From the IMG/VR virus record IMGVR_UViG_3300021256_002084: a DNA stretch of 64,000 nucleotides; one strand, given 5' to 3'. The stretch is from an uncultured virus (IMG/VR IMGVR_UViG_3300021256_002084) (Duplodnaviria; Heunggongvirae; Uroviricota; Caudoviricetes). Within the stretch, counting starts at the first letter, position 1. Each line of letters opens with the position of its first letter. Below are positions 10,688 through 57,999 of this stretch, piece after piece. A model generated the notes under the pieces. The model saw only the letters and a list, made by a program, of their open reading frames with translations, was not told the DNA's origin and ran no database searches. The position numbers were made by a program, and so were the translations under genes.

Positions 10688-10694
10688 ACTTTAA

Positions 10695-17752: not shown

Positions 17753-17788
17753 CTCTTATAAATTTCTACTCAACTTTTAATGAATGGT

Positions 17789-20700: not shown

Positions 20701-21661
20701 CTGCAACGCCCTTGAAATAAATGATATTCAATTCGTGAGCACCGAAACGAACCTTGATAGTCTTATCACGGAACGGATCCTCATAATAATTGAGCGTAGA
20801 GAATGTTCCGGGAGTCTGTACGCCGCTCACTCTCTTCAAACGAACTCTCATCAAATTCTGATCAACTTCACGAATTTCGAAGATAGACTCAGAATAACTT
20901 ACTCTGTCTCCTACTGAAAGGACGTTGTTCTGACCCTAGTCGACTCCGTCTGTAGAAACAGTATAGTAACTGATTGAATCTAAAGGATACCAGACGTTAT
21001 CGTCAATAAGTATAGGGTCGTCGTTGACTACAAAGCCACCTCGCTTGAGATTCTGAACCAGAGGCATATTGATAGTCTCTTCATCCTCATAGTACGAAAC
21101 ACCCTCTTGAGTAAGACGTGTCTTGAGTGTTGTGTAGTCATAAGCATTCTGACTTAAATCGCTTTCCCATAAAGCATATGCGTTACTATCATTAGCGTCG
21201 AGAATAATTCTAGTTACACGGACACGGTCAGCAGTATCTTCGATCTGACCAGTCAAATCTATATTGACTTGAGCACCTGGAAACATCAGTTCCTCGAAGA
21301 ACCAGTTGCTGTCAACAGTAAACTCAGTAGGATCCGCGAGACCGGTAATCTGCTCAGGTGTATGGGGAACGCTAGTCAGACGAATTGTCCTGCGACTGCC
21401 GTCTTCGAGATTTATAGTCCCATAACCCTTATGCAGAGAATCGATTGACTCTTCTACTGCCTTCAACCTGTTGATGATAGCGTCATAACTAGGCAACTGA
21501 TACTACAGTTTTTCTCCATCCTCATTCTCGTAGTCAAAAGTAGTGAACGTATCATTAGTCGTCATCGCCTGCTGCTGCGCTTCAAGCATAGCCAGTGTAT
21601 TCACACTGTTCTTAGTGATGGCATTAATATTCTGTGAAAATGAATTGATATTCTTACTCAT
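17789..21661 (-). CDS. Large putative virion protein with coiled-coil segments, about 1290 aa with 9 TAG=Gln
   Basis: One frame from ATG 21661 (MSKNINSFSQN) to TAA 17789; TAG at 21503, 20936, 20462, 19304, 19076, 18902, 18563, 18302, 18104. Confidence 0.8.
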
Positions 21662-21663
21662 AG

Positions 21664-29957: not shown

Positions 29958-31081
29958 GCTTTAAGAAGATTATTGACAAGATAGTCAAGCGGTTTCTATT
30001 TTGGATTGAAATCTTTTGAAATAACTATCAATCCACAGTTATATGTGTTTCCGTCATTGTCAGCAATAACTCCGAAACTCAAGCACGCTATCATTGTAGC
30101 GAACTGAACACCATCTTCTTTGTACTTATCAGCAAGCCAATAAGAATAATAGTGAATTGTTCTCTTGTGATTAAGAATCTTATTGTAAATATATTGATGT
30201 TCCGGTTCTATCGGTTTATTGTAAAATTCTTTGAACTGACTTGTTGATTCATTATCATTGTTCAGATTATATATACTCGGAAGACCGGAAAAAGAATCTT
30301 TATGCTCTTTGTATATGAAAAGAAAGACACCATCTTCAATATTGATTTTATTTTGAGTTAGTCTACAGTCCATCTTGGACGGACCCGGCGTCCCCAATTT
30401 CAAATGGCTGGCATATATCTTCGTATCTACACAATTCATCATCTTTTCGACAAATGCTTTCTTCATCCAGTTCTCCTGGAAATTAAGAAACTCATCTACT
30501 TTCGCTTTTGAAATATCAGAATCTTCTTCTTTCATCAAAACGTTACAGAAAGTTATCAGTTTCCAGCGCATAGCATAGTCGTTTCTCTGAATGTTTCTAC
30601 TTTGCTGCTGTAATTGCATAACTAAAGAGTAATCTTCAAAGATGAGAGAAAGCCCTTCTTCAGAAGATGAATCGACGCATCTCACTTTATATCCATAGAA
30701 ATTTCTCAAGAACTTATACGGAATCCAGAGAAATTTAAATACTTGGTCGACTGTACGGAAAGCAGAGAATTCTATACCGACGATGAACAAATGTTCATTG
30801 AGCGTCGTGCAGAATTTATAGAGATAATGAGGGTAGTCGTTTTTAGTGCCATCGACAACAACAATATCAGAGAATGACTCGATGAAGCGATTTGCCGACA
30901 GGATGTCAGAAAGTCTGTCGACAAAGTATTCGGGATTCTTCAATTCTTCTTGCGCTAAACAAGAGAAGCAGAATATGTACTCATAATCGTCTGGCGAATT
31001 CTTGATTTCGTCAGCATCTACGGCAGTCATATCTGTCTTTTTCGCTTCTATATCGTCAAGCAAATCTTCGTAAACTCTCAT
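29954..31081 (-). CDS. Hypothetical protein of the YED(L/I)LDD N-terminal family (TAG=Gln at 29996)
   Basis: Read-through ends at a TTAA shared with the convergent gene; GATAAATA 6 nt before ATG. Confidence 0.7.
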
Positions 31082-32995: not shown

Positions 32996-33862
32996 TTATT
33001 CCGGCGAAAGGATTCTCTTGAATGGAATGAAGTTTCCTTCGGGATTATGCTCACGATGAGTGTTTTGATCGTCAAGCACAGCGAATACAATTTTCTTGAA
33101 AGCGTGCTTGTAGGGACGTTCGCTCATCACTTCTTTGAAAAGTTTCGCCATTTCTTCTGGAGGCGTTCCATACGCTCCACAACCGAATGCGCCAAGTACG
33201 AGAGAATCGTTCTTCCAATACAATGCGACGTTGAAGATAGTACGAATCTTGTTTCTTAGAATATCACGAGATTTCTCTTCCAATGTCCCATCAGCATTGA
33301 GTTTCGGATTCTTGATAGCAGCGCAAGAAATGACGTCAACAGTGAACGGAAGCATCATAAACTGATAATCAGTTTCTTCGCTTAAGCGGAAAACACTGAC
33401 AACGGGCGAATAAATCGCTCCGAAGTTGATGTCAAGCGGGTAGTGAACCTTACGTTTCTGATCTGCAAACTTCTCTATTGAAGGGTAGAGATTTGTTCGA
33501 CGACATAAGTTTTCTTCTTGAGCAGCAGAACCAGTCTTGACGCCGCCGCCAGGACGTTTGAATGAAGCCATATTCAGAACGGCTGGATAAAGTCCTTCAA
33601 TATTAACGAGTTCTTCGGCAACATAGAGACAATCCTTATTTATGACTTGAACGTTAGTATGCTCAAAGCGTTTGAACAACTTCTTATCCAATTTCTGAAA
33701 GAGATTTCTGTTGTAGATTTCTGCATCATTATAGTGCATATTGTAATCCTCTCGGAAAAGTTCTGTTGCTTCTCCGCTATCAGGATTTGTATACTTCCAG
33801 TTATTAGCACACGCAAGCGTTTCTTCGAACACTTTAATTCTTTCTTCTTTCGTCATCGCCAT
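32996..33862 (-). CDS. Bacterial-type PARG/macrodomain ADP-ribosyl hydrolase (TIGR02452-like)
   Basis: VLNMAS..PGGG...G..AQEE.LCR and LVLGAFGCGAY motifs. Confidence 0.85.
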   Translation of the reverse strand: MAMTKEERIKVFEETLACANNWKYTNPDSGEATELFREDYNMHYNDAEIYNRNLFQKLDKKLFKRFEHTNVQVINKDCLYVAEELVNIEGLYPAVLNMASFKRPGGGVKTGSAAQEENLCRRTNLYPSIEKFADQKRKVHYPLDINFGAIYSPVVSVFRLSEETDYQFMMLPFTVDVISCAAIKNPKLNADGTLEEKSRDILRNKIRTIFNVALYWKNDSLVLGAFGCGAYGTPPEEMAKLFKEVMSERPYKHAFKKIVFAVLDDQNTHREHNPEGNFIPFKRILSPE

Positions 33863-34509
33863 TCGTTTTTAAGTTTATCGACAAATGTTTTGGTCACAGT
33901 GAATGAGTTGTCGGCTAGTCTCGCCCAGAAGTCAGCGTACTGCTGCAAGTTATCGACATCTTTCTTTCCTGGAACGTCGCTGATGACACGGAACGCTACA
34001 AATTTGACATTATTGATATGACAGACTTGAGCAATCGCTCCGCTCTCCATATCAACAGCAATAGCATTAGGAACAACATCAATGATTTCTTGAACTTTGT
34101 CTCCAGTCACCAACCAATCACCAGAAGCAATCTTGCCGCAAACGATACAGATGTCGATATATTGGTTACAAGCAAGAGCTAGATTAATCAACGCAGCATT
34201 TGTCTCAAACTCAGCTGGCATATCTTGGACTTGACCCAATTCATTGTCTTCTCCGCAGAATACATCGTGATAGCGAACAGTCTCGCTGACTACGACATTA
34301 CCGACGTTCAAGAGTTGAGAAAGTCCACCAGCGCAGCCAGATGAAATTATAAAGTCTGGATGATATGTATCGATGAGTTTCTGCGTAGCAAGAGCAGCAT
34401 TGACTTTTCCGATACCCGACTTCACGACGCAAACGTCTGCATCGTTCTCGAACAAAGAATTGAGTTGGACGAATTCCTTGTCCATTGCAACAATGATACC
34501 GATTCTCAT
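33853..34509 (-). CDS. mtnN: 5'-methylthioadenosine/SAH nucleosidase
   Basis: IGIIVAM..E, SGIGKVNAA, SGCAGG, AVDMESGAIAQVC, RVISD. Confidence 0.9.
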   Translation of the reverse strand: MRIGIIVAMDKEFVQLNSLFENDADVCVVKSGIGKVNAALATQKLIDTYHPDFIISSGCAGGLSQLLNVGNVVVSETVRYHDVFCGEDNELGQVQDMPAEFETNAALINLALACNQYIDICIVCGKIASGDWLVTGDKVQEIIDVVPNAIAVDMESGAIAQVCHINNVKFVAFRVISDVPGKKDVDNLQQYADFWARLADNSFTVTKTFVDKLKNEWR

Positions 34510-34805
34510 AATACTTTCGCTAATCTGTAGTTAGTACTGAGTTGACTCTTCTCCCAAACGAAATTGAACGGAATCTTCTGGTCGCCGGCCATAGTAACCC
34601 AAACGATGTCATTAGTATCGTCGACGTTCTCGACCTCTAATTCAGCCCAAGGAAATACGTACTCCTTAGTAACTTCGTAGATTCTCTTCTTAGTAGCAAC
34701 GTTGAACAGAATGTACTTACGCATTCCGTGCTCAATGATACGTTTCTTCATTTCGGCGACTTGCTCTTCAGATAAACTGATGCTCTTGACTTTCTTAGTT
34801 TCCAT
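34506..34805 (-). CDS. Hypothetical protein
   Basis: ATG 34805 (METKKVKS) downstream of a host-type promoter; overlaps the mtnN start. Confidence 0.65.
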   Translation of the reverse strand: METKKVKSISLSEEQVAEMKKRIIEHGMRKYILFNVATKKRIYEVTKEYVFPWAELEVENVDDTNDIVWVTMAGDQKIPFNFVWEKSQLSTNYRLAKVL

Positions 34806-34858
34806 TTTATTTTTGATTTGATAATGCACGCTGGCTATATGCCTTTGTTTCTTGAGTA

Positions 34859-34890
34859 CAAAGGTAAGAATTATTTTTAAATGAGACAAA
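34859..34890 (-). promoter_or_regulatory. Bacteroidota sigma-A type promoter
   Basis: TTTG...TACCTTTG (-33/-7 consensus). Confidence 0.7.
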
Positions 34891-34932
34891 CAATCAAAAA
34901 GAAAAGTTGAGAATTTTTGGAAACTTTAACAA

Positions 34933-35634
34933 TCAATGACTTCTGAGTTCTTTCTGAATATGTTTGACAAACTTCTTAATTTTGTCGATGATATACAATT
35001 TATGATATTCTTTACGTTGAATCTTCATTACACGATTATCGTGCCAGAACCACATTAACATAGAATCAGCAAGCAGTTCGATGCTCTCAGATGACTTCTC
35101 GAATGTTGCATATCCATCACGTTCAAAGAAACTGATTGGATACATATGTCCGACTTCACGACCATCTTTCGTATAAATTTCTGCTTTACTATGAGAACCC
35201 CAAATGTGAAAGTCGTTGGCGCAAGCGTAGAAGAACTGAAGCATGTGCATTACGTTCCCATCAAAATTGAAATATATCCTGTAGCCAGCCATACCTCCGA
35301 TAGATAAACTCAGACGTGAACGTTCTTCTTCTGGAAGCATTTGACCGCCGATATAATTCTAAGCGTCGTTTGACTCTTGATAATAAATGATGTCGTCAGT
35401 CCAATAAGAGTCGAGATAAACGTCCATCTTTTCTTTTAGTTTCTACAACGGACGTTTATAACTATTCTCTATTTCATATATTTGATGCTTTTTATTATAG
35501 TCGTAATTTGTCTAATGGCCGATATAAAGAATATAGTCGAAGTTTTCTTTTGCAGAATCTTCGATTAATGTTTCAGTTGGACTCTTCTTACTGGTAGAAT
35601 CCAAATCATCAAGAATATCTTCGTATAAACGCAT
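34933..35634 (-). CDS. Hypothetical protein of the YED(L/I)LDD family (TAG at 35512, 35443, 35359)
   Basis: MRLYEDILDDLDS start parallels MRVYEDLLDDIE of 29954..31081; GATAAATA 7 nt upstream. Confidence 0.7.
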
Positions 35635-35640
35635 CACAGA

Positions 35641-36489
35641 TTATTTATCTCTCAGTCTAGTGATATAATCAATGTACTGCCAATCAAACTGTGGATTTCC
35701 CTTACTTATACAATCAGATAAGAATTGTCTGTACTTATATGCATCAAATGTATCTTTATCGCTCTGCACATATAACGACGGAACGCTTACAATCTTCTTT
35801 CTGTTATCGTATTTATAAAACTTAGAAACTCTGCTACGCTCTTGAAAATGACGTAACACTTGATGCATCTGAAGAACGTCTCTGTCTGATTCGATATCGA
35901 ACAATTCTTTGAACCAATCAGAAAACTTCCAGTATGTCGCTTCGTTTTTGAGTTGATCCAAATTCTCCAGAAGATTGCGTAAGAGATCTTTATAATGAGA
36001 TGATTTTATATTAAAGCAGCGCATCATTTTCAGACTATTGAGTCCAATGCTGACGCTTTTTTGATGATAATCGCCATGTTGATGAAACATCAAGACAATC
36101 TGCATCAACAATCTTGATTTATTCTTCTGACCGAAATTAAAGCCCATTCCGAACAAGCGTTTCTTTGTCGTCGGGAAGTCTGTATATCTGTCGCCGAACT
36201 TATCGTGAAATTCGATAATGTCTCCAATGAACCCATATATGAATTCGTCAGCATAGAATCCAAAATAGTCTCTGAACATCTCAAACGAATCCATATAACC
36301 ATATGATGGCGGGTCACAATACTTATCGTCATATGGCATATAAAAGAATAGCGACAAGTCGTATCCTTCGAAGAAATTCTCGTCTAAATACATAGACATA
36401 GGATACACTGGAACATTATCCTCATCAACTAACTCCCCAACGTTGAGACTCTTGGGTTCGTTGAAGAAATCATCAATCTTCAAATCCAT
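35641..36489 (-). CDS. Hypothetical protein
   Basis: Open ORF, ATG 36489 (MDLKIDDFFNE). Confidence 0.7.
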   Translation of the reverse strand: MDLKIDDFFNEPKSLNVGELVDEDNVPVYPMSMYLDENFFEGYDLSLFFYMPYDDKYCDPPSYGYMDSFEMFRDYFGFYADEFIYGFIGDIIEFHDKFGDRYTDFPTTKKRLFGMGFNFGQKNKSRLLMQIVLMFHQHGDYHQKSVSIGLNSLKMMRCFNIKSSHYKDLLRNLLENLDQLKNEATYWKFSDWFKELFDIESDRDVLQMHQVLRHFQERSRVSKFYKYDNRKKIVSVPSLYVQSDKDTFDAYKYRQFLSDCISKGNPQFDWQYIDYITRLRDK

Positions 36490-36491
36490 AA

Positions 36492-37184
36492 TCACTACTT
36501 AGACCATTTAGCAAATCCGTATATGCAGTTCAGAGACCAGAACACGAACTGAGCAGCCATACAATAATCACCAGCAATAATCCACATTACGACACTGCCG
36601 ATGTCAATAATGAGCCAGAACAACCATTGTTCACGATAACGAAGAATCAGCAATATCTGCGCAATAAATGCCGGTACTGTTGTAACGCTGTCTATGAACG
36701 GCTGAGTGTCGTCAGTATGTAGAAGAACAGAATACAAAGCGATGATACATATAGTCATAGCAACAATAGTCACTGAGAACCAAGTCTTAGTCATCTTCAA
36801 TGTCTCTACTACGGCAGATTCTCTATTGTAATGAGATAACCATATCCACATTCCAACAATCATCGTCACAGCATAGAACCCGTTCTCAGCAAGTTCGCCG
36901 TACAGACGCTGCTCGTATGCAAGGATACAATACGTAATGAGTTGCAGCCATCCGAAAACATAGAACATCCATTTCTTCTGACTGCATAATACGACACTAA
37001 TGATGCCGGCGCTTCCACTAATGAATGAAATCAATGAAGCATCAGTCGTCTTATATGCAATGTACTGGACAATCAGTCCGGACATCATAAATAGAAGCCC
37101 GAACCAACTATCAAACAGTTCATTCTTTAGAACTCTGAACAAGTTCTTGAAGTGATAAGCCAATTCTTCTAAAACGTCTATCAT
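36492..37184 (-). CDS. pnuC: Nicotinamide riboside transporter PnuC
   Basis: Multi-TM protein with P(F)IDSVTT, AQILL..RYREQW..W..ID motifs; ends TAG-TGA. Confidence 0.85.
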
Positions 37185-38278
37185 TTCAAATTCTGAATAT
37201 AGTCACGAACAATTTCAAAATTCTTCTCAAACTCACCACCAGTCAAATAAGTGATACGCTCAGATGGATAATCGAAGTTTCGTATCAGTTTCTCCAACTT
37301 CGCCATATTCTCTTTGCGTTCACTCATTGATGCTTGTTTCATATAGCGAGAGCCGTCATCAACGAAGTTCGGATTGCCGGGACGAACAACGAAGATATGA
37401 TCCCAACGAAAGTACTTCGCAACAGAACGAGCGTGTAGAGTCAATGCCTGGTAGTCGTCCATTGATATATCAATGTCCGGATCATAGACATATGCCTTAG
37501 CGTACATAAGCGTCACTAAGTTGTCAGTGTCCTGGATAGTGATGCCTTTCTGAGCGTTCATCACTGCTTTCTTGTACTCTTCGTACTGACCGGAGATGAA
37601 CTGATGAAAATCATTCGCCACGAGGTCGACGTCAGTGATGTTACGCTGCTCCATATAGATACGCCCGTACTCAACTGTCTTCGGGATGTTGAAGTACTTA
37701 GCAATATCATTAACGAGAGTCGTCTTACCCTCAGATGCAGTTCCGATGACCAGGATGTTCTTGACGAAGTATGGTTGGAACGTCTTCACAATCTGCGGAA
37801 ACCACTTCATTGGCTCCTTACGTATTGCTGTTCCGGAAATCGGATTCACACGATGAATGTAAATCACCGGTTCATCGATTGCAGTCAAATCATTAACATA
37901 TCTTTGCTCAGCAACATAGAAGTGATAATTTCCCCAGCAGAGTTGGAAGCGCTCGGCTCTCAGAATAATTTCAATCTGATGCTTCACTTCTTTCGTCCAG
38001 ACGTTCCAGTTATGCAGAGACATCGATTCGTCAATTCCCAGCTTTGTATCATTGACTTTGAGTACAGTTATCTGCTCGTCGCCTTTGAAGAACTCAGTGA
38101 CAAGAGCATATCGTTTGTTCAAATCGAGTTTGATTTCATTAGCACGAGGCTCATTATCATATCCGCAGACTACGACAAATACCTTGTCGCACTGCTTCTT
38201 TGCTTTCATAATGACATCAAGATGTCCTCTGTGCATCGGACAATAGCCGCCGAAACATATTCCAACTTTGTTAGGCAT
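37181..38278 (-). CDS. nadR: NadR-type bifunctional NMN adenylyltransferase / nicotinamide riboside kinase (no HTH)
   Basis: GGYCPMHRGH, ISGT.IR, Walker A GTASEGKTT, EYGR, DTD, DDGSR. Confidence 0.85.
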   Translation of the reverse strand: MPNKVGICFGGYCPMHRGHLDVIMKAKKQCDKVFVVVCGYDNEPRANEIKLDLNKRYALVTEFFKGDEQITVLKVNDTKLGIDESMSLHNWNVWTKEVKHQIEIILRAERFQLCWGNYHFYVAEQRYVNDLTAIDEPVIYIHRVNPISGTAIRKEPMKWFPQIVKTFQPYFVKNILVIGTASEGKTTLVNDIAKYFNIPKTVEYGRIYMEQRNITDVDLVANDFHQFISGQYEEYKKAVMNAQKGITIQDTDNLVTLMYAKAYVYDPDIDISMDDYQALTLHARSVAKYFRWDHIFVVRPGNPNFVDDGSRYMKQASMSERKENMAKLEKLIRNFDYPSERITYLTGGEFEKNFEIVRDYIQNLK

Positions 38279-38281
38279 AAC

Positions 38282-38659
38282 TCATTCAATATTAAATTCG
38301 AAAATCAAACCGTCATATCTAGAATCAGAATCTTGAGAGTCTATATCAACGGGATGCTGAAAACAAGAGACGTTCCATCCGTGTAATTCGTATAGCCTCT
38401 TTAGTATGCTGAGATTTCTGTTCAACGCCGACTTAACGTATTCTACGTCCCAAGGTTTTGTCGGATACAAAAGCCTATTCATTATCTTATTCACATTGAG
38501 AATCTGCTCTACAGAAATAGACTTACGAATCTTTCCGTATTCTTCTACTTCGTTGTCAGTCAATTGCAACGTGTGGTTGATAACATAAACTAATGAACGA
38601 TACTCAGGATAATACATTCTGAAGTCGTCAAACGGACTATATATTTCAATGTCTGACAT
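38282..38659 (-). CDS. Hypothetical protein
   Basis: 125 aa ORF tightly packed in the operon. Confidence 0.6.
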   Translation of the reverse strand: MSDIEIYSPFDDFRMYYPEYRSLVYVINHTLQLTDNEVEEYGKIRKSISVEQILNVNKIMNRLLYPTKPWDVEYVKSALNRNLSILKRLYELHGWNVSCFQHPVDIDSQDSDSRYDGLIFEFNIE

Positions 38660-38665
38660 ATTTCT

Positions 38666-38902
38666 TCACTTATGATGATTATGTTCACGAACTTGTTCAA
38701 TCGTATATGCCGGAAGAAAATACTTCTTGTCTGGACATCTAGAATTCTTCTTCAGATGTGTGAATCTCTCGTCGGGTTCGTTCGGACGTCCAGCGTCCTG
38801 TGCAGCCAACCACGCAGCCTCACAAGAATACGTCTTGTAATCACAGTTGATGTCTAACTTTCGACTGCAATTTTTACAAAAGGGTTTTCTTCCGATTAAC
38901 AT
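38666..38902 (-). CDS. Small Cys-rich hypothetical protein
   Basis: 78 aa with CxxC and further Cys. Confidence 0.55.
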   Translation of the reverse strand: MLIGRKPFCKNCSRKLDINCDYKTYSCEAAWLAAQDAGRPNEPDERFTHLKKNSRCPDKKYFLPAYTIEQVREHNHHK

Positions 38903-38913
38903 AATCCTAACGA

Positions 38914-41037
38914 TTAGAAATAGAACTTCAAATCAGCGAATACGCTCGTACCGCAGTTACGGAACCAGAGAACAGTATCATCTTTTCCGATTGCTGCATT
39001 GTAATAGTTTGTCCTGTTGAAGATATTATTGACTCTCAAGCCGGCTTCAATCTTCTTCCAGCGATAAGTTCCCTCTACATTGAACAACAGATACTCAGGA
39101 ATAGTATACTTGTTCTCAATGTCCATATACATCTTTGTATGATATTGGTTGTTAATTCCGACGCGCCAGTTAGATGCCTGATAACAGATTTCGTTATTGA
39201 ACGTGAACGCGGGAGTCAGAATATGAGTTGTTTCTCCGTAAGTCGCAGTCTTGATTCTGTTACGACCCAACGATGCATTCAGCACATAGTGAAAGTTGCT
39301 CCAGAAATTCCAGTCTACTGTTGCTTCTGCGCCATAACGATATGACTTGTCAGCAGTATCGTGTAAGGGCAGACCGTTTAAGCCGTATTGTCCGTTGAGA
39401 ACACGCTCATTGCGGAAGTTCATATAATACAGATTGACATTTGCCTTAATCTTATCCGTAGAGACTTCATAACCCAATTCGACATCGTTAGAACGTTCGG
39501 CCTTATTGGTTGTCAAGTCTCCGACGAAAAACTCATTTCCGCCGAACATATCTGTACGAGTCGGCTCACGGCTTACCTCAGCATAGCGCACATATAACTT
39601 ATTGTGATTGTCGATATTGTATGAGATTCCAAGACCATAGTTCACGAAGTCCCAATTCGTTCCGAAATCGTTCTTAGAGAATGACATCGCATCGTTCATA
39701 TGATCTGTGTATCGGAAATCGACGTGACGATATTGCACATTAGCATTAAAGTCAAACTTGCCTAACGTATAGTTGACAGCAGCAAAGACGTTAGCGTCAT
39801 TCTTGTAACCAGTATTATCATAGTATTCGTCTGAACTTACATTCTTGAAGTGCTCGCTGACACAGTCGTTCATAAAATGCTCACGCTGATATTTGTAGAC
39901 GTTAGTCCCGACAGTGAAGTTCAAGTCGTTGAAATAGAATTTGGCTGCTGCGTTCGCACCATAGAGATAATGCCGTAATCCGTAACTATATACAATGCCA
40001 GTCAGAGTCCAAGGCGTACCATCACCGTTCGGGTCAGTAACCATCCTGTTCATATAGTTGTCCAAGTCCATATTGTACCAGCCGTTCTGATATTGCAGAT
40101 ATGCTGATGCAGTCAGGAAGATGTTGTCATTGAACTTACCTTTGTACTGAATCTTGTTGACCGACTGAAACCATTCGTCTATATCATCAGCAACATTGCC
40201 GTTAGCGTGCTTGTTCGCAGCGAGTTCGTCAAGCGTGTTTCCAAGCCATCCCTGACAATTACGATGACGTCCGTTAAGTGAGAGAATGTCAATAGAATGA
40301 CGGTCGTTGAACCAATAACCGTACTTCAGTGTAAATGCCTGGGAATTGTTGAATGAGTTGTCTCTGAATCCGTCAGTCTGCTGCTGTGTAGCCTTAACGT
40401 GGAAAGCGTGGTGACCGCCAAGCAATCCGGAATTGTAAATCAGAGAAGTCTTATATGTATTATAAGAACCGGCTCCGATGTATGCATAGGAAGTTGTATC
40501 AGTAAGAAGATTCACTGATTCAAGATTGATGCTACCACCGCTGCTTGCCGTACCGTTGTTAGTCGCAGAAGAACCACGTTCGACTTTGATGCTATGCATA
40601 GATGACATCAAGTCCGGAGAATTAGCGAAGTATGTTCCGTAGTCCTCAGATTCATTCCAAGGCATTCCGTCCATAGTAACGTTGATTCGAGTCTGGTCGA
40701 GACCGCGGATACGGAAATAACCGTAGCCGAACTCTGTTCCGTTGTCGTCCATAGAGAATACATTGGGCATCTTTGCGAACAGATGCGACGGCTCCTGACC
40801 GTAGTTCTCAGAAATCAGAGTCTTGTTATCAATGAGATAACCGACATTGACGTTGTTGCGATACAGCGATGTGACAGTGACTTCGTCCAACTTGATAGTA
40901 TCACTGATGACATCTGCTGAGACGGGAACGTCTTTAGTGTTGTTGTTACTTGAGCGTGTAGTGCTCTTAATGTTCTCACTCTTTGCTGTAAAAGCGAAAG
41001 CGCTAATCAATGCGCAGATTAAAAATAATTTTCTCAT
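38914..41037 (-). CDS. TonB-dependent outer-membrane receptor (vitamin-type)
   Basis: Signal peptide MRKLFLICALISAFAFTAKS, TonB-box-like LDEVTVT, plug IRGLDQTRINV..DG.P, NNIFN, C-terminal F. Confidence 0.9.
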   Translation of the reverse strand: MRKLFLICALISAFAFTAKSENIKSTTRSSNNNTKDVPVSADVISDTIKLDEVTVTSLYRNNVNVGYLIDNKTLISENYGQEPSHLFAKMPNVFSMDDNGTEFGYGYFRIRGLDQTRINVTMDGMPWNESEDYGTYFANSPDLMSSMHSIKVERGSSATNNGTASSGGSINLESVNLLTDTTSYAYIGAGSYNTYKTSLIYNSGLLGGHHAFHVKATQQQTDGFRDNSFNNSQAFTLKYGYWFNDRHSIDILSLNGRHRNCQGWLGNTLDELAANKHANGNVADDIDEWFQSVNKIQYKGKFNDNIFLTASAYLQYQNGWYNMDLDNYMNRMVTDPNGDGTPWTLTGIVYSYGLRHYLYGANAAAKFYFNDLNFTVGTNVYKYQREHFMNDCVSEHFKNVSSDEYYDNTGYKNDANVFAAVNYTLGKFDFNANVQYRHVDFRYTDHMNDAMSFSKNDFGTNWDFVNYGLGISYNIDNHNKLYVRYAEVSREPTRTDMFGGNEFFVGDLTTNKAERSNDVELGYEVSTDKIKANVNLYYMNFRNERVLNGQYGLNGLPLHDTADKSYRYGAEATVDWNFWSNFHYVLNASLGRNRIKTATYGETTHILTPAFTFNNEICYQASNWRVGINNQYHTKMYMDIENKYTIPEYLLFNVEGTYRWKKIEAGLRVNNIFNRTNYYNAAIGKDDTVLWFRNCGTSVFADLKFYF

Positions 41038-41066
41038 TTTGTTTTGAATTTGAATTAAATCTGCGG

Positions 41067-41097
41067 CAAAGGTAGAAAATAATTCTGAATTACGCAA
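41067..41097 (-). promoter_or_regulatory. Bacteroidota sigma-A type promoter of the receptor-nadR-pnuC operon
   Basis: TTGC-N19-TACCTTTG. Confidence 0.7.
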
Positions 41098-41147
41098 GCG
41101 TTATTGGAGAAAAGCGCAATTTGTTAACAATATTTAACAAATAGAAG

Positions 41148-41219
41148 TACTCCGCCTGAGAATCGAACTCAGATTACGACATTGAGAGTGTCGCGTCCTG
41201 ACCGTTAGACGAACGGAGC
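41148..41219 (-). tRNA. tRNA-Glu (anticodon CTC)
   Basis: Cloverleaf GCTCCGT...CGACA-CTCTCAA-TGTCG...CTGAG-TTCGATT-CTCAG-GCGGAGT-A; CCA not encoded. Confidence 0.9.
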
Positions 41220-41227
41220 AAATAGTG

Positions 41228-41309
41228 TAGCGATGAAGGGAATTGCACCCATACGGATTTCTCCACTCGTTTTTGAGACGAGCCTGTCTACTAGTTCCAG
41301 CACATCGCC
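41228..41309 (-). tRNA. tRNA-Leu (anticodon CAA)
   Basis: CTCGT-CTCAAAA-ACGAG anticodon arm, long variable arm, A73; atypical A18 and G55. Confidence 0.85.
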
Positions 41310-41318
41310 GAATGATAG

Positions 41319-41402
41319 TGGGGGAAGCGAGGTTCCAACTCGCACGTCCATCTGGACAACGGGGCTTAAATCCGTCGCGTCTAGCCATTCCGCCATTCCC
41401 CC
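41319..41402 (-). tRNA. tRNA-Leu (anticodon TAA)
   Basis: ACGGA-TTTAAGC-CCCGT arm, long variable arm, A73; atypical C19 and G56. Confidence 0.85.
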
Positions 41403-41411
41403 GAATGCTAG

Positions 41412-41499
41412 TGGAGGTGGAGGGATTCAAACCCTCAATCCCGTTTGTATGGGCGTCCGGTTCTGAGCCGGAAGTGTATCTCATTTCCACCACACCTCC
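41412..41499 (-). tRNA. tRNA-Leu (anticodon CAG)
   Basis: TCCGG-CTCAGAA-CCGGA arm, long variable arm, A73; atypical A19 and T56. Confidence 0.85.
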
Positions 41500-41510
41500 A
41501 AATTATATTG

Positions 41511-41599
41511 TGACTGAGGTGGGACTCGAACCCACACGTCTCGTTTTAAGAGACATCGCGTTCTCAGCGCGATCCGTATACCAGTTCCGGCACTCAGCC
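41511..41599 (-). tRNA. tRNA-Leu (anticodon GAG)
   Basis: TCGCG-CTGAGAA-CGCGA arm, canonical GG D-loop and TTCGA T-loop, long variable arm. Confidence 0.9.
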
Positions 41600-41606
41600 A
41601 TATATA

Positions 41607-41657
41607 CAAAATAAACAACTCCGGATTGATTTCGTAAGATCCAAACCGGAGTTGTTT
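41607..41657 (-). terminator. Attenuator-type terminator immediately upstream of the first tRNA
   Basis: Perfect 12-bp stem AAACAACTCCGG/CCGGAGTTGTTT followed by ATTTT, 13 nt before tRNA-Leu(GAG). Confidence 0.8.
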
Positions 41658-41697
41658 CAGACTATATAATAAGTCTATATATAATTATTCGGAGATC

Positions 41698-41784
41698 TTA
41701 CATATGAACACAACGTAACTCAGCGAGAAGCAATAACTCCTCGTTCAGCAAGTTAAGTTCAATATGTAGATTCCTTGTAATCAT
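41698..41784 (-). CDS. Leu/Glu-codon-rich leader peptide of the tRNA array (28 aa)
   Basis: ATG ATT ACA AGG AAT CTA CAT ATT GAA CTT AAC TTG CTG AAC GAG GAG TTA TTG CTT CTC GCT GAG TTA CGT TGT GTT CAT ATG TAA; 9 Leu, 4 Glu (3 GAG). Confidence 0.75.
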   Translation of the reverse strand: MITRNLHIELNLLNEELLLLAELRCVHM

Positions 41785-41790
41785 CAATTC

Positions 41791-41842
41791 TATTTATCTA
41801 AACTAATTTGAGTCAAAATTCAATTTGCTCTTACTATTTATA
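41791..41842 (-). promoter_or_regulatory. Late-type promoters of the leader/tRNA unit
   Basis: GATAAATA at 41791-41798, 6 nt before the leader ATG; TATAAATA at 41835-41842. Confidence 0.65.
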
Positions 41843-41885
41843 CTCGTCTTTTTGATTTTAGTCTCTTAAACAGAGAAAATTTTTA

Positions 41886-42644
41886 TCAGAAACTGAAAAT
41901 TGAGTACATCAGACTGATGTTTAGTGACGGACGTAACTGCATATCCGATGTCAGACCGTATCCGATTGACGGGCCGATATGCCAGTGTTTCTGCGGGAAG
42001 CACTTCTTCAGAGTCTTAATCTAAGTCGGGTCGACAACAACACCTTCGATGTCCATAATCTGCACATACGGATTATTAGAGCGTGCTATAATCTTAATCT
42101 GCTTGTCTTTCTTTCCCTCAATCAAGTTGAATGTGAAGTTAACAGGAATAGACAAGTTGTTGATTGTTGTAGAAAACTGAGAAAAGTTACTCAGAACATC
42201 TGTTCGACCAGTCAGAGAATAGTATCCGTTAGTTTCATTCGCACTCCAGTAGAGATTCTTCCAGACATTGTTGAGAGAATCCTTAGACTGTCCGATTGAA
42301 TCGCTCTTTGCTGGAACTTCTTTGATTTCGTACTTAGTAACGATTTTCGTAACAACCAATGGGTTGTCTTTGAGATTCTTTATTTCTGCATAGAGTTCTT
42401 TATTCTGATTCTTCAAGTCCTTGATTTCCTGGATATAGAGATTCTTAGCGACATATGCAGAGTCGAGGATGTTCTTATAAACATATAGACTGTCTTTATA
42501 GATAACTGTCTGATTGTGTGCTGCGTGTTGATAATGACGTGCTGAGATATACATACCCAACGTCAAGAGAGACAATATGACAATAATCCAGTCTTTGAAA
42601 GTGAATTTGGAGATAATCTCCCAAAGATTTTTAAGAAAGTTCAT
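41886..42644 (-). CDS. Spanin-like lysis/membrane protein (TAG=Gln at 42021)
   Basis: N-terminal TM helix, coiled coil, and after read-through KHWHIGPSIGYG...PSLNISLMYSIFSF, an amphipathic beta hairpin ending in Phe. Confidence 0.6.
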
Positions 42645-42761
42645 TTTAATTCAATTTTCTTTTATTTATCGTCACCAAAGTTGCATATTGCGATTTAGAT
42701 GAACAAAAAGGACGTCTAACCATAAGATTGACGTCCCTTAATATGTTAAATGATAGTTATA

Positions 42762-43823
42762 TTACTTCTTCTTTGACTTTGTCTTTACGACTGGCTTCTT
42801 TCTCTTCGAAGTCTCTGAAGAATTTGTTGCTTTCTTGCGACCGCGAGCAGACTTCTTCTTAGTCTCTTCTGCTTCGGCTTCTTTAGCAGCGATGCGTGCA
42901 TTACGCTCGGCTTCGTACTCTTCGTCGATGTTCAGACCAGCAAGTTCTTCGGGTAAGTCTGAAGGGATATCTTCATCTGCGATGCCACCGAGAATATCAT
43001 CGAGTTCTTCGGATTCTGGTTCTGCTTCAACATCGCCTTCTACTTCATCTTCAGTCTCAACAACATCATCCTCTTCTTCGACGATGTCTTCTACTTCAGC
43101 GTCTTGTGGGAGAATTGGTTCGATTGTATCTTCAATCTCTTCTTCAACATCATCTTCGATAGCGTCTGCCGGTTCATCAATAACGTCGGGAATTGGTTCT
43201 TCTGTTACTTCGTCTTCAATTGGGTCGCTGAGTTCTACCTCTTTCTGAAGTTCTTCTGCTTGCTGTTGCTTTTCGGCTTCGTCGAGTTTCTTGCATTCTG
43301 CATTGAGTTCCTCGATTGCTGCTTGCTTTTCTTCTTCAGTCATAGGCTTGTTGTTCTCATAACCAAGGATAGCATTCTGAGGAACGTCAATATTCACAGT
43401 CTGCTGAGTCTGCTCTTCTACAGCCTTGGGTTTATCAACAAAGGAAAGTTTTTTAACTACTTTCGGTTTATCGTCACCAGCAAACTCATCTTCCATCTGC
43501 TTCACTTTGTCGTTCCATACTTTATCATAGTATGCTTTCTGTTCTTCGGCGAGACGACGTGATGCAGCCATCTGCTGCTGTTCCATAATCATCTGCTCGT
43601 GAGTGGGTCTCTGTACTACTACAGGGTCAACGTCCATATAAGTCTTCACCTGACCGTTCTTGTTGTCGATTACGACAGGACTATCAGAATACACTTTCTT
43701 AATGGGAACTTGTGGTGTGCCTGGCTGAAAGTACTTCGACCAGTCTTCTTTATTAGTCTCTTTAGTGCCAGATGCTCCCCATCCGGCATTAGGATTCTTT
43801 CCAAAATACTCAGAATAATTCAT
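42762..43823 (-). CDS. Acidic low-complexity protein with basic tail
   Basis: 353 aa, D/E-rich; GATAAATA at 43857. Confidence 0.75.
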   Translation of the reverse strand: MNYSEYFGKNPNAGWGASGTKETNKEDWSKYFQPGTPQVPIKKVYSDSPVVIDNKNGQVKTYMDVDPVVVQRPTHEQMIMEQQQMAASRRLAEEQKAYYDKVWNDKVKQMEDEFAGDDKPKVVKKLSFVDKPKAVEEQTQQTVNIDVPQNAILGYENNKPMTEEEKQAAIEELNAECKKLDEAEKQQQAEELQKEVELSDPIEDEVTEEPIPDVIDEPADAIEDDVEEEIEDTIEPILPQDAEVEDIVEEEDDVVETEDEVEGDVEAEPESEELDDILGGIADEDIPSDLPEELAGLNIDEEYEAERNARIAAKEAEAEETKKKSARGRKKATNSSETSKRKKPVVKTKSKKK

Positions 43824-43917
43824 AAAGTTCTCTTTTCTTAGAATTTTTATTTTACTTATTTATCAAAGAAAATGAGAGAACTTGTACAATTCTCTCAAAT
43901 TATTGATAATCTGTATG

Positions 43918-46926: not shown

Positions 46927-47028
46927 GTTATTGATATAAATTGATTTTAATTATTTATCTAATGTTTGCTGAGAAGAAAGATAAGTTTCAAGAAAAAGAA
47001 AGAGGACGCTAGAAAGCATCCTCCCGAA

Positions 47029-50411: not shown

Positions 50412-50455
50412 AATAAGTTTCTTCTCTTTTCTTATTTACGTTATTTATCAAAAGA

Positions 50456-51553
50456 TTAATAAAAAGCCGACTCTTCTTCATCTTTATCGTGCGATGCATC
50501 ACGATAGACTATATAAAGGTCGCTGTACTTCTCCATAAGAGTCTCTTTCAAGACTTCCTTGTTCTTGTAGTAACAATTCTTGACTTTCGACTCAGTCATA
50601 TTCAGAGTCTCAGCAATCTCACGTAGAGTCATATCGTCTTGATTCTTCATCTTGCAGATGACTTGGAAAAGCGGATCCATAGTGAGAATCTCGTTAATTG
50701 AAGCATCGTGCATCTTCATCGTGACTTCCTCGAAATCGTTAGACTCAATTTGGTTTGAGTCATTGATGACGTAGTAAGTATTGTCTACAGTTGCAGCATT
50801 GTCACCGTTAGGATGCAGAGCGCTGGCAAACACATCATTGACGTCGACGTCGATAGTACGGTCCTGTCCGTCTTTCTTTAACTGGCTGAATGTGATGTTG
50901 CGTGCAATCGTATAGAGCCATGTGCTGAAGTTCGACTTGTCTGGGTCGTACATATAGCGCTTCTCCCAAGCGCGGATGAACGTTTCCTGAACCATATCTT
51001 CGGCACGTTCCCAATCGCCGATAATCTTAGTGAGGTGTGAGTGGACACCGAAACGGAATCTGTCCCAAAGAGTGTTGAATGCGTTCGGTGTAGGGTTCGA
51101 GTAGAACTTGCGCACAATCGACCTGTCGATTTCCATCTGCTTCTGCTTCTTGCTCAGAGACTTCGGGCGCTTGTTATCCTCTCGAATCGCAGCGTCTATC
51201 TTCTCGACGATGAGAAGAGACTGTTCATTTATATAAGGTGTGGGATTCACTGTGCCAACAGACGTCTGTGCCTTACGTCCGTTTTCTTTTTCTGTACTGA
51301 TTCTCTTTGCCAGTCTCGCTGTGCGATTGTTCGTCAGTTTGCAGTACTCTCGCTCTCCGATGCGATCCATAATGCTTGTGAAACCGATCTTTCTGGCTTT
51401 AGCCATCAGCCGGTTGTGGACTTTTTCAAATTTGGCGCGGATGTTTATATCCTCAATGCCGGCGATGTGCTCAAGAACAGTACAGAACATTCTGTCTGAT
51501 GGTCCCGCCATCTCACTCAGAAGTGACTGCTCAAATTTCGTTCTTTTCTTCAT
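50456..51553 (-). CDS. Phage-encoded sigma-70 family (ECF-like) sigma factor with N-terminal extension
   Basis: Region 2 AEDMVQETFIRAW...FSTWLYTIARN; region 4 MTLREIAETLNMTESKVK. Confidence 0.85.
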   Translation of the reverse strand: MKKRTKFEQSLLSEMAGPSDRMFCTVLEHIAGIEDINIRAKFEKVHNRLMAKARKIGFTSIMDRIGEREYCKLTNNRTARLAKRISTEKENGRKAQTSVGTVNPTPYINEQSLLIVEKIDAAIREDNKRPKSLSKKQKQMEIDRSIVRKFYSNPTPNAFNTLWDRFRFGVHSHLTKIIGDWERAEDMVQETFIRAWEKRYMYDPDKSNFSTWLYTIARNITFSQLKKDGQDRTIDVDVNDVFASALHPNGDNAATVDNTYYVINDSNQIESNDFEEVTMKMHDASINEILTMDPLFQVICKMKNQDDMTLREIAETLNMTESKVKNCYYKNKEVLKETLMEKYSDLYIVYRDASHDKDEEESAFY

Positions 51554-55494: not shown

Positions 55495-57801
55495 TCATCT
55501 ACGCTTATGACTATTGTACTGAAAACGCTGATCGCGGAATAACGGTTCAAAAGAAGAAACTTTAATACCGAGTTTCCACAGAACGTAACTCAATGACATC
55601 TAATCTCTGTGACTATACTTTCTCAGTACTTCGGCCCACATATCCATCACTTTCCTGACTTTATCCGTATTCTTACGCACTATCACATTCGTCTCGTGTA
55701 ATCCATAGTGATGCGGGAACTGTTCTTGTCTGTAGAAATCAAGCTGCGGATTCAAATTATTCCAAGTATCTTTCCTGTACTTTACAATTGCTTCAGCCTC
55801 GTCGTATATACAGTCTCTCTTCGGATGTTTGGTGATGACGACATCATCGTCTGCTATCTTATCGACGAACTCATCGAGATTGCATTTGATAGTCAGGTTG
55901 CCGTCGACCCAAAGACATATATCATAGTTCTCAAGGAACTCATACGGCTTGATTTTGATGATGCGCTGCTTCTTGATGATTGAGAGACTTTCGTCGTTCG
56001 CTATAGATTTCGGTAACGGACGTATCTCCCAGACTTTTGACGTGAAATTAGTCTGATCCGTAAAGCAGACGTATCTCCATCCTGGCGTCACTACCAGAGG
56101 TTCTATCAATGCATCATATTTTCCAGTAATGCAAGTATAGCATATCTTGATTGAGGTTTCTTCTCTCCTCATAAGACGTCCTTTCTATATATTAATATCG
56201 TTTATCTTGTTTCCCGTCGTATTTACATCACACAGACGGTCGCTCTTTGCAGACTTTGTCGTATATGGTCGCATAGAACGGTAATCGGGAGTTCCGACGA
56301 CACGCACATTACGCTCATTCTCTATAATCTTGAGCAATATGTCATCTGTCGTAATGTAATCGTAGATATCTTCTTCTTTTATATCTTCAACGTGAAGTAT
56401 GTTAGCGGGATAAAGTACGCCACCGACGCCAGTAGCGAACAAATCGAAAGAAGGAACCGACTTGTCCTTAGACTGGAATATCCAATCTCCGTAGTTTTTC
56501 GGAGTTATTCCGTCTTCTTTATAAGTGATACAATGACAACGGCACGCACAGACAGTATTCGGATATTCGACGTGCGTACGATACAAATCCTCTATCATCT
56601 TAGAGTAATAGTGTTGATCATCGTCTACTGTAATGATGACAGCATCTTTGTACTTCATCATAGCCGGATAATACTTCAAGTGGGGACGATAGTTCTTTTC
56701 ATATATGATTATTTCTACTTTGCCCTCACGCTGAAGTTTAAGTATAGAATCAGGAACATATTGTTTATCGTCTTTGTATATGCTCAATACGACTAATTCT
56801 GGTTTAATGGTCTGCTGTGTTAATATCTCTCTGATGACATTCGGTGCATCATTCTTCAGTCTCTCCCCGAAAGATGTCAGAGATACGATAATGCGTTCGG
56901 TCACTTCGACTTTACGCTTCATCGATGAGAGAACGCCAGTTCGTCTCGCAGGATTGATAGGATTTCTCTGAGGAAACTTCAAATCAGTAGTTTTGTTCCA
57001 GTAATCAACAAACTCTTGCTTGCCCATATGAATTCCCCAAGGATAACGGCCCAGACGTTTATGCCACAGTTCTGGATTGTTATCAATAGCGAATTCAACC
57101 GCAGTTTTAACATCAGTATTCTCGTGTACATTATATAATATATAAGAAATATACTGATCCTCGACAGTCTTGAGACGTTCGTTGCGTTTCAACCCAGAAT
57201 CGGGTTTTAATATGTCAATCATTCTCTAAACCTTTCTGAGAGACAACCCACCATTTCCGCACGCTTCTTCTGGAATTCCTATAGAAGATGCGTATTCTTT
57301 CGTCCATGGCGCACCGATGTACGTCTTGTCCATAGCAACAAAATGCTTCAAGTCGTCAGCAGTTCCGAATATGTAAGCATCGAGTTGCAAGATGAGGATA
57401 TACTTCCAGGCAGTGAAATGCTTATAGAAGTCAGCAGACAAAAGCATATCCGAATATGAGTTCTTCCCGATGAAGTTTCTTGAAGGAAGTCTGAGATACT
57501 GCAATTCGACTCCAGATGCAATGGAATTGTAAACATCAGCCCTCAGAAGTTTGGGACATACAATACAGATGTCGAAATACTTACCGAGTTTCTCAACATT
57601 GTTCTTCAGATTCATCTGCTCGAATTCTAGAATCCTGTTAGTGTACGCAGGGATGACTATCAGACACTCTGAATTTTTCTTGGGTTTAATAATATCATTC
57701 GTCTATAGCGGAGCAACAGTTCCAGTAAAGTCGTTGTACGACTATCCTGTATTTCCAACAGACGATTTGTACACATTATAGAATTCTTGAAATGAATGCA
57801 T
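55495..57801 (-). CDS. Three-domain glycosyltransferase fusion: DUF5672-like + GT-A + DUF616-like (5 TAG=Gln)
   Basis: YILILQLDA, YIGAPW, GNGGLSLRK; IIVSLTSF..R, IITVDDD; YTCITGKYD, WVDGN, HPKRDCIYDE, RD-TAG-MS; one frame from ATG 57801 to TGA 55495. Confidence 0.75.
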
Positions 57802-57999
57802 TGAAATGTAAGAAACTTCGATTTTAATTATTTATTTTCAAAAGTTGTGCATTTTGTTTATAAACAAAAAAGAGCAGTTCCTTTGCCAGAATCTGCTCCG
57901 AGGAAATATATAATATACCCGGCCAAGGTTGGAATTTTCTTTCCTATAGATGGGACAAATATATTTATCAGAGAACGAAAATGTGAAAATTGAATTTTC

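Follow-up and report, generated by a model that had tools for sequence, protein, structure and literature searches.

Comparison of the leader with known attenuation systems

In the amino-acid operon attenuators of Escherichia coli and Salmonella (leu, trp, his, thr, and ilvGMEDA), a promoter is followed by a short open reading frame (ORF) rich in codons for the pathway's amino acid, whose stop codon falls within a pairing segment, with alternative hairpins and an intrinsic terminator ahead of the first regulated gene. The pheST attenuator, with its pheM leader, and the T-box riboswitches control aminoacyl-tRNA synthetase genes through the supply of charged transfer RNA (tRNA), and T-box elements bind uncharged tRNA directly, with no ribosome involved. 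Here, we analyzed a small leader element of about 190 nucleotides (nt) situated 5′ of a tRNA array on the minus strand of a 64,000-nt stretch of an uncultured virus (IMG/VR record IMGVR_UViG_3300021256_002084), the whole of which is referred to as the window. With a probability that we place at about one half, this element serves as a leader that senses the ribosome and controls whether transcription continues into the tRNA-Leu array; its Glu component and the exact antiterminator are uncertain. The parts of the leader and their order, the non-random Leu and Glu codons, the selection on these codons, and the conserved terminator stem were computed here. The features involved are the following:

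41791..41798, minus strand: promoter-like motif GATAAATA, 6 nt 5′ of the leader ATG; enriched in the window and identical in the related contig L071
41784 (ATG) to 41700-41698 (TAA), minus strand: 28-codon leader ORF followed by TAA; its residues include 9 Leu and 4 Glu
41757..41774, minus strand: segment 1, the 5′ arm of the long hairpin in the minimum free energy (MFE) structure
41724..41743, minus strand: inner hairpin CGAGGAGU/GCUUCUCG with loop UAUU (MFE structure); kept in the variant strain X3
41691..41709, minus strand: segment 2, which forms the 3′ arm of the long hairpin and includes the stop codon (MFE structure, inverted repeat); its alternative partner is the terminator apex
41681..41687, minus strand: UAAUUAU, the partner of the 5′ AUGAUUA (41784-41778) when the full length is folded (MFE structure); no change shown in the variant strain
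41658..41677, minus strand: small hairpin UAGACU-N8-AGUCUG (MFE structure); L071 keeps the stem, both of its changes being in the loop
41613..41657, minus strand: terminator hairpin, a 12-base-pair (bp) GC-topped stem (41657-41646/41624-41613) plus a 21-nt apical part (MFE structure, inverted repeat)
41604..41615, minus strand: U-rich tract UUUAUUUUG, after and overlapping the stem base; one U short in the contig X15
41599-41510, minus strand: tRNA-Leu-GAG (ARAGORN)
41499-41411, minus strand: tRNA-Leu-CAG (ARAGORN)
41402-41318, minus strand: tRNA-Leu-TAA (ARAGORN)
41309-41227, minus strand: tRNA-Leu-CAA (ARAGORN)
41219-41147, minus strand: tRNA-Glu-CTC (ARAGORN)

An original prediction, made from the nucleotide sequence alone, had named the motif, the ORF, the terminator, and the five tRNAs, and all of them were confirmed in place by ARAGORN, Rfam, and reading of the ORF. 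All five tRNAs matched Rfam tRNA at 44-54 bits. The terminator stem and the first tRNA (Leu-GAG) are separated by 13 nt, which leaves no room for a separate array promoter. When 40000-43000 was scanned with Rfam cmscan at E <= 10, the five tRNAs and weak chance matches were returned, with no leader family (Leu_leader, Trp_leader, or others) and no T-box.

Like the amino-acid operon attenuators, the leader has a promoter motif, a Leu-rich ORF, a stop codon in a pairing segment, alternative hairpins, and a terminator before the first gene. It departs from them in that the regulated genes are tRNA genes and not biosynthetic enzymes, all six Leu codons are used instead of a run of one codon, most of the regulatory codons sit between segments 1 and 2, and the candidate antiterminator takes the terminator apex and only 3 nt of the 5′ arm; in addition, the ORF is probably leaderless and matches none of the Rfam leader families. 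The original prediction had equated the locus with the trp/leu/pheST layout, and the motif, the short Leu/Glu ORF, the terminator, and the cognate tRNAs agree with it, but the match was overstated. The proposed control of terminator read-through by charged tRNA, ahead of genes of the decoding machinery, is shared with pheST and the T-box systems, whereas the product of the phage locus is the tRNA itself, and no T-box match was obtained.

Stable small RNAs, namely the species 1/2 RNAs, are also found in the tRNA cluster of phage T4, and we know of no codon-matched ORF or terminator ahead of the tRNAs for the stable RNAs of T5 or T4. In the T5 record (NC_005859), RNAI, RNAIII, RNA2H, and others are annotated as “stable RNA with unknown functions”. 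The leader resembles these RNAs as a structured non-tRNA RNA adjoining, and co-oriented with, phage tRNA genes. The phage itself resembles the Lak megaphages of Prevotella (MK250015-MK250029) in its recoding of TAG, which is very likely, and in its many tRNA genes, but neither a Leu leader nor an array of four Leu tRNAs turned up in six Lak-like IMG/VR contigs.

Codon match between the leader ORF and the tRNA array

The leader ORF reads MITRNLHIELNLLNEELLLLAELRCVHM and, as in an attenuator, is a short frame (28 codons) lying directly 3′ of the promoter-like motif at a distance of 6 nt, where transcription presumably starts. Also in keeping with an attenuator, it is enriched in codons for the amino acids of the downstream tRNAs. 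All six Leu codons occur in it, and the Leu anticodons of the array (GAG, CAG, UAA, and CAA) cover every Leu codon that the phage uses except the rare CUA. Within codons 10-23, 11 of the 14 are Leu or Glu codons cognate to the five anticodons. Leu and Glu together account for 13 of the 27 codons after the start (0.48), which ranks first among the 290 ATG ORFs of 20-40 codons in the six frames of the whole window, the next value being 0.385.

Two further tests addressed this composition. Shuffles that preserved the hairpin pairs and the composition gave 42,473 open frames out of 300,000, with a mean of 3.87 +/- 1.89 Leu plus Glu codons and a probability of 7e-5 for at least 13; on this result, complementarity of GAG and CTC within the hairpin was rejected as the source of the Leu and Glu mix. 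The second test was free of start codons: the best 14-codon window 5′ of each tRNA block was scored for that block's own amino acids. Among 94 blocks (the one block of the window and 93 from the six Lak-like contigs), the window upstream of the array came out on top with p = 1.1e-7, and the runner-up (p = 3e-5) was an AT-rich Ile stretch without a start codon. Mismatched-control pairings fell below 1e-6 in 0.05% of 2,142 trials and, in a second set, in 0.03% of 2,969. The Leu/Glu codon match of the leader is well beyond chance. The original prediction had read codons 10-23 correctly, including the 11 of 14 cognate to the five tRNAs, and the match proved non-random by rank (1/290), by shuffling (P = 7e-5), and by the window test (p = 1.1e-7).

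Natural variation of the leader in related strains

The metagenome contig L071 was the only full relative recovered, with 91.4% identity over 884 nt. It was obtained with a degenerate terminator pattern, as the one related sequence among 41 metagenome loci; the same pattern returned 1 locus in IMG/VR and 31 in GTDB, none of them related by blastn. Exact patterns (the 45-nt terminator and a 24-nt tRNA piece) gave 0 matches in IMG/VR, and DNA comparison with GenBank phages gave tRNA-Glu look-alikes only. In L071, the promoter motif and the terminator stem are identical, the leader ORF has two differences (R4K and one synonymous Ile), and the apical 21 nt of the terminator carry five changes. ARAGORN identified its tRNAs Leu-CAG, Leu-TAA, and Leu-CAA, and a 4-nt gap interrupts the T loop of its Leu-GAG copy. 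The array varies by strain, since L071 (positions 830-1200 of that contig) has no tRNA-Glu after Leu-CAA in the recovered sequence. A near-copy of tRNA-Leu-GAG with 3 differences (X3, record 10) lies directly behind another tRNA, without the leader.

A more diverged strain (X3, record 9) covers 41100-41784 with 33 differences, of which 25 are shown, and was more informative regarding the ORF. It carries 11 substitutions in codons 12-28. Four of them lie in Leu codons, and all four are Leu-to-Leu (TTG to CTG, CTG to CTT, TTA to TTG, and TTG to TTA), while the remaining seven fall in codons other than Leu and Glu. The amino acid was therefore changed in none of the 10 Leu/Glu codons, as against five of the 7 others (N14S, A21V, R24C, V26I, and H27Y), and all five cognate codon types are kept. 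When substitutions with the same transition/transversion mix were placed at random, all ten Leu/Glu codons were spared in 0.87% of 200,000 trials (P about 0.009). The outcome was no different when the inner hairpin had to remain equally stable, with 0.49% of the 3,493 structure-keeping trials among 30,000 (P = 0.005), and RNA structure was rejected on this value as the cause of the synonymous Leu changes. The inner hairpin is also kept in X3, despite 8 substitutions in 37 nt: it folds at -17.0 vs -14.9 kcal/mol, compared with -10.0 +/- 4.0 kcal/mol for random variants, 5.8% of 5,000 of which were as stable as X3. The terminator stem is unchanged in three lineages (L071, X3, and X15), the apical part having 4-5 changes; these apical changes lengthen the stem to 16 bp (-25.9/-24.8 vs -20.4 kcal/mol). 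As the original prediction had required of relatives, L071 keeps the leader ORF and the small-hairpin stem, X3 keeps the Leu/Glu residues of codons 12-28 and the inner hairpin, and both keep the terminator stem.

Conservation of the regulatory codons while other codons drift is what an attenuator would show, and it was seen here in one lineage with part of the differences unshown. The pattern as a whole, in which only the regulatory codons and the helices are preserved while the remaining residues vary, looks in this lineage like the signature expected of a leader peptide, and it argues against both a functional small protein and a purely structural RNA.

The same substitutions bear on a different reading, in which the leader senses tRNA or a protein directly, with antitermination of a T-box-like or protein-mediated type, or else serves the processing or stability of the tRNA precursor, its codons working as RNA motifs without being translated. 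The leader is indeed rich in triplets complementary to the array anticodons, two of these anticodons, GAG and CUC, are themselves complementary, and GAGGAG faces CUUCUC in the inner stem. We nevertheless regard direct sensing as very improbable: the Leu-to-Leu changes swap codons read by different anticodons (TTG to CTG, CTG to CTT, and TTA to and from TTG), which fits a constraint acting on the amino acid or the codon set and not on fixed RNA triplets. Moreover, neither a T-box nor any other Rfam match was obtained for the leader at E <= 10, and an in-frame start, a stop, and the promoter geometry are all present.

RNA fold, terminator, and alternative pairings

The region 41800-41600 (201 nt) folds at -65 kcal/mol (z = -7.5), and none of 200 shuffles was as good. 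The 1:2 hairpin, the inner stem, and the terminator stem of the original prediction were all present in the MFE structure, where the long hairpin (41774-41691) encloses most of the leader ORF. Two further attenuator features were found, namely the stop codon UAA (41700-41698) inside segment 2 and an intrinsic terminator, made of the 12-bp stem and UUUAUUUUG, between the ORF and the first tRNA.

Regarding the 2:3 helix, the original prediction had paired segment 2 with the top of the terminator. An 8-bp core (41701-41694 with 41641-41634) was indeed detected as an inverted repeat, but segment 3 (41645-41634) lies in the apical part of the terminator hairpin, and only CGG of the 12-bp stem is shared. 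The 2:3 duplex is predicted at -15.4 kcal/mol with 9 + 3 bp, which is stronger than expected from 3,000 shuffles of one partner or the other (P = 0.013 and 0.004), and no other stretch of the leader pairs as well as segment 2 with the apical part of the terminator. In folding models, the 1:2 and 2:3 pairings exist as alternatives. A nascent-RNA model ending at 41625, before the 3′ arm of the terminator exists, gave a probability of 2:3 of 0.02 with no ribosome, 0.86-0.87 when Leu codon 10, 12, or 13 occupied the A site, 0.84-0.87 when codons 23-24 did so, and 0.49 for the stop codon. The predicted release of segment 2 by a ribosome stalled on Leu or Glu codons was thus reproduced in the model at codons 10-13 and 23-24 (P about 0.86) but not at codons 17-20, and in the untranslated leader 2:3 hardly forms (0.02), as the prediction requires; at the stop codon 2:3 falls to 0.49.

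An alternative antiterminator, in which GGAGUUAUU (41740-41732) would pair with AACAACUCC (41656-41648), was rejected: a ribosome on the Leu codons would cover GGAGUUAUU, which makes this pairing unfit for a stall-induced switch. GGAGUUAUU, at the ORF centre, mimics the terminator 3′ arm GGAGUUGUU and is able to base-pair with the 5′ arm; with the change A41734G of the variant strain, the mimicry becomes perfect.

The stability of the fold also suits another explanation, according to which the locus is a self-contained unit with its own promoter and terminator that yields a structured RNA of ~177 nt, perhaps encoding a small helical peptide; the tRNAs would be expressed by constitutive leakage or phage antitermination, and the Leu/Glu match would have no regulatory meaning. 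The phage is built of promoter-gene-terminator modules and the leader has the same form; the very stable fold (z = -7.5), with its 5′-3′ closure, long hairpin, small hairpin, and terminator, is that of stable small RNAs; the stems of the inner and small hairpins are kept in the variants; stable RNAs without an assigned function are annotated inside the T5 tRNA region; and the terminator is favoured at equilibrium throughout. We consider this explanation possible but doubtful. It demands an extreme coincidence, the codon match having p = 1.1e-7 while only 0.03-0.05% of mismatched controls reach p < 1e-6, and structure leaves the synonymous-only change of the Leu/Glu codons unexplained (P = 0.005 with structure kept). 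Replacement of 5 of 7 non-Leu/Glu residues is not what one would expect of a functional peptide, and the array would be left without a promoter of its own.

Search for codon-matched leaders at other phage tRNA blocks

An ORF-based test across 104 tRNA blocks placed only this leader below 1e-3; an extra hit obtained at a looser block definition overlaps a tRNA gene and was discarded. A wider set comprised 214 distinct blocks (888 tRNAs) from 124 IMG/VR loci picked by a generic tandem-tRNA pattern. Here, p < 1e-3 was reached in 9 of 214 (4.2%) matched pairings vs 4.3% of mismatched ones, and none fell below 1e-5. In the T5 tRNA region, none of 17 upstream regions was convincing, the best (0.0013) being a Cys-rich zinc-ribbon-like ORF. 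There is no sign that codon-matched leaders are common at phage tRNA blocks.

Proposed mechanism and its weighing

For a ribosome-sensing leader, we infer that transcription starts at GATAAATA, about at the ATG, that the resulting leaderless or nearly leaderless ORF is translated, and that 2:3 pairing lowers termination, with the switch running in the direction described here. With no ribosome, or with a ribosome quickly reaching UAA, segment 2 would be occupied by the 1:2 hairpin or by the ribosome itself; the terminator would then fold, and a leader RNA of ~177 nt would end at the U-tract. When charged tRNA-Leu is scarce, the ribosome would linger on the Leu codons and cover segment 1, and the free segment 2 would pair with the apical part and the top of the terminator hairpin, so that the terminator is slowed or weakened. 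RNA polymerase would read into the four tRNA-Leu genes, plus tRNA-Glu where present, and the new tRNAs would relieve the stall, closing a feedback loop.

Several results weigh against this mechanism. No comparable leader was found at the 93 blocks of the six Lak-like phage contigs or at the 214 blocks of unrelated viral contigs, contrary to the expectation of the original prediction that the codon/anticodon match would recur at other tRNA clusters. Just one near-identical relative was recovered in full, the coding-constraint test draws on one variant contig, and 8 of the 33 X3 differences are not shown and presumably lie near the contig end, at 41752-41784. The substitutions of X3 spread 4/2/5 over first, second, and third codon positions, with no excess at the third. 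The sole true RNA run (X19) contributed one contig, 41928-42100, outside the leader. The Glu part of the original prediction is weak: the Glu codons are kept in the X3 variant, but two GAG codons form one arm of the inner stem and may be its by-product (GAGGAG/CUUCUC), and L071 keeps the leader while diverging at the tRNA-Glu site.

The remaining objections concern the switch. L071 has one change in the 2:3 core (G41641A), although new pairs offset it and the 2:3 energy is kept (-16.4 kcal/mol). For an A site placed at codons 17-20, the nested model retains 1:2 with the ribosome inside it and forms no 2:3; such closure around a ribosome is physically doubtful. Of the 12-nt 5′ arm of the terminator, 2:3 occupies no more than the 3 nt CGG (41648-41646). 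The 9 bp below could therefore form all the same, 2:3 is not clearly exclusive with the terminator, and a pseudoknot of the two is conceivable. Equilibrium folding with ribosome masks gave no switch: the terminator had P = 0.98 in 14 of 14 ribosome states and was 10.5-18.2 kcal/mol better than any alternative. The claim that a stall brings about antitermination therefore holds in the nascent model, where 2:3 forms, but not at equilibrium. Because the terminator always wins at equilibrium, any antitermination must be kinetic; the block would consist in loss of the hairpin's nucleating top and GC pairs, and its effect may be partial.

Why phages carry tRNA genes and how their expression is timed has been debated for decades. 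In literature abstracts on phage tRNAs, the case is made for codon compensation or for evasion of tRNA-cutting defences, and passages of PMC13056530 offer context on phage tRNAs and tRNA-targeting defences, with nothing specific to tRNA-Leu. Full-text literature searches, their hits judged by title and abstract, returned no leader-peptide control of tRNA genes. If the ribosome-sensing reading is true, the phage measures decoding speed and makes tRNAs on demand, ribosome-mediated attenuation extends from amino-acid and synthetase genes to tRNA genes, and these tRNA genes are under feedback control by leader-peptide attenuation, a logic not found in the literature so searched. A more tentative extension, to which we give limited credence, is that the leader senses the supply of tRNA as part of an anti-defence island: the phage would make its own Leu tRNAs only on Leu-codon stalling, for example after a host nuclease cuts tRNA-Leu, and the genes for salvage of nicotinamide adenine dinucleotide (NAD) adjoining the array would counter NAD-depleting defences.

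Promoter-like motif in the window

The promoter claimed in the original prediction is real as a motif. GATAAATA occurs 15 times in the window vs 4.04 +/- 1.98 expected, a count reached in 0 of 100 shuffles; 13 of the 15 copies lie on the gene-rich minus strand, and 9 are located <=33 nt 5′ of the ATG of an ORF of at least 166 codons. It is probably the phage's own promoter element, and a gene for a phage sigma factor is situated at 50456-51553. Other sites include 42663-42670, 43857-43864, 46952-46959, and 50442-50449, often 30-40 nt after the terminator of the preceding gene. At 42712/42670, 47004/46959, and 53791/53731, for example, GATAAATA comes after the canonical terminator of another gene, and the other gene-end terminators of the window share the build of the leader terminator (a hairpin plus a U-rich tract); since such terminator-then-GATAAATA modules recur elsewhere in the phage, the leader hairpin looks like one of its ordinary terminators. 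Two paralogous long genes (29996-31081 and 34933-35640, minus strand), which begin MRVYEDLLDD and MRLYEDILDD, have their ATG 6-7 nt after GATAAATA, as in the leader, and are candidates for leaderless mRNAs, which makes leaderless or near-leaderless starts plausible in this phage. The leader motif appears similar to the T4 late promoter TATAAATA. A further copy of the gene-start motif was found upstream of the leader:

41835..41842, minus strand: TATAAATA, second, upstream copy of the gene-start motif; kept in L071, with a putative function suggested by its likeness to GATAAATA

Source phage and neighbouring genes

The window derives from a large phage with a Bacteroidota host. The phage families matched in it comprise a ClpP-like head protease, a thymidine kinase, a sigma factor, PnuC, and a NadR-like enzyme. 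The nearest named relatives of the gene upstream of the leader were Prevotella Lak megaphages, at 44.6-45.4% identity in 15 of 15 matches, and the public runs containing the stretch were metagenomes of animal gut, mostly ruminant. The genes flanking the leader and the array include the following:

42644-41889, minus strand: upstream gene of 252 codons, its frame read through TAG 42023; stop at 41886-41888
38914-41046, minus strand: TonB-dependent receptor gene, preceded by TACCTTTG

An alignment-based search for relatives of the upstream gene yielded 48 loci in IMG/VR and none in GTDB; no tRNAs lie within 3 kb at any of the 48, which places the leader and the array outside the conserved context of that gene. 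Single-protein locus searches of IMG/VR found no locus with both flanking genes.

The upstream gene raises the question of whether the hairpins are simply its 3′ untranslated region and terminator, the leader ORF being an untranslated chance frame. No convincing terminator is located between its stop (41886-41888) and the leader, the first strong one being 41657-41613, as such an arrangement would have it. We find it unlikely, as two promoter-like motifs separate the ORF from that gene, the statistics on enrichment and on synonymous changes speak against a chance frame, and 0 of the 48 IMG/VR homologue loci have tRNAs within 3 kb.

Directly 3′ of the tRNA array, a block of host-like auxiliary genes extends over 32996-41097 (minus strand) and includes genes for a TonB-dependent receptor, a NadR-like nicotinamide mononucleotide (NMN) adenylyltransferase/kinase, a PnuC NMN transporter, a PNP/UDP phosphorylase, and a microbial PARG. 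This block may be a NAD-salvage, counter-defence island. The TACCTTTG preceding the receptor gene fits the -7 promoter consensus of Bacteroides.

In this phage, TAG very likely encodes an amino acid, probably Gln. The upstream gene stays in frame for 45 codons beyond TAG 42023 (codon 42023-42021, minus strand) and aligns with 252-residue homologues that bear K or D there, and CAG replaces this TAG in L071 and in the contigs of 4 of 4 public runs. Reading through TAG merges ORFs into frames of 1297-1728 codons and adds no spurious ones, and a single PHROG match (phrog_29329, E = 8e-70, residues 9-738) spans three in-frame TAGs; besides codon 42023, the regions concerned are 12569-21682, 6350-10690, and 55495-57831. 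No suppressor tRNA was found within the window, whereas related contigs do carry tRNA(CTA). Suppressor-type tRNAs with anticodons TTA and CTA were located in the Lak-like IMG/VR contigs L130 (947-1019), L131 (11-85 and 920-992), and L134 (6351), in line with stop-codon recoding in this phage group.

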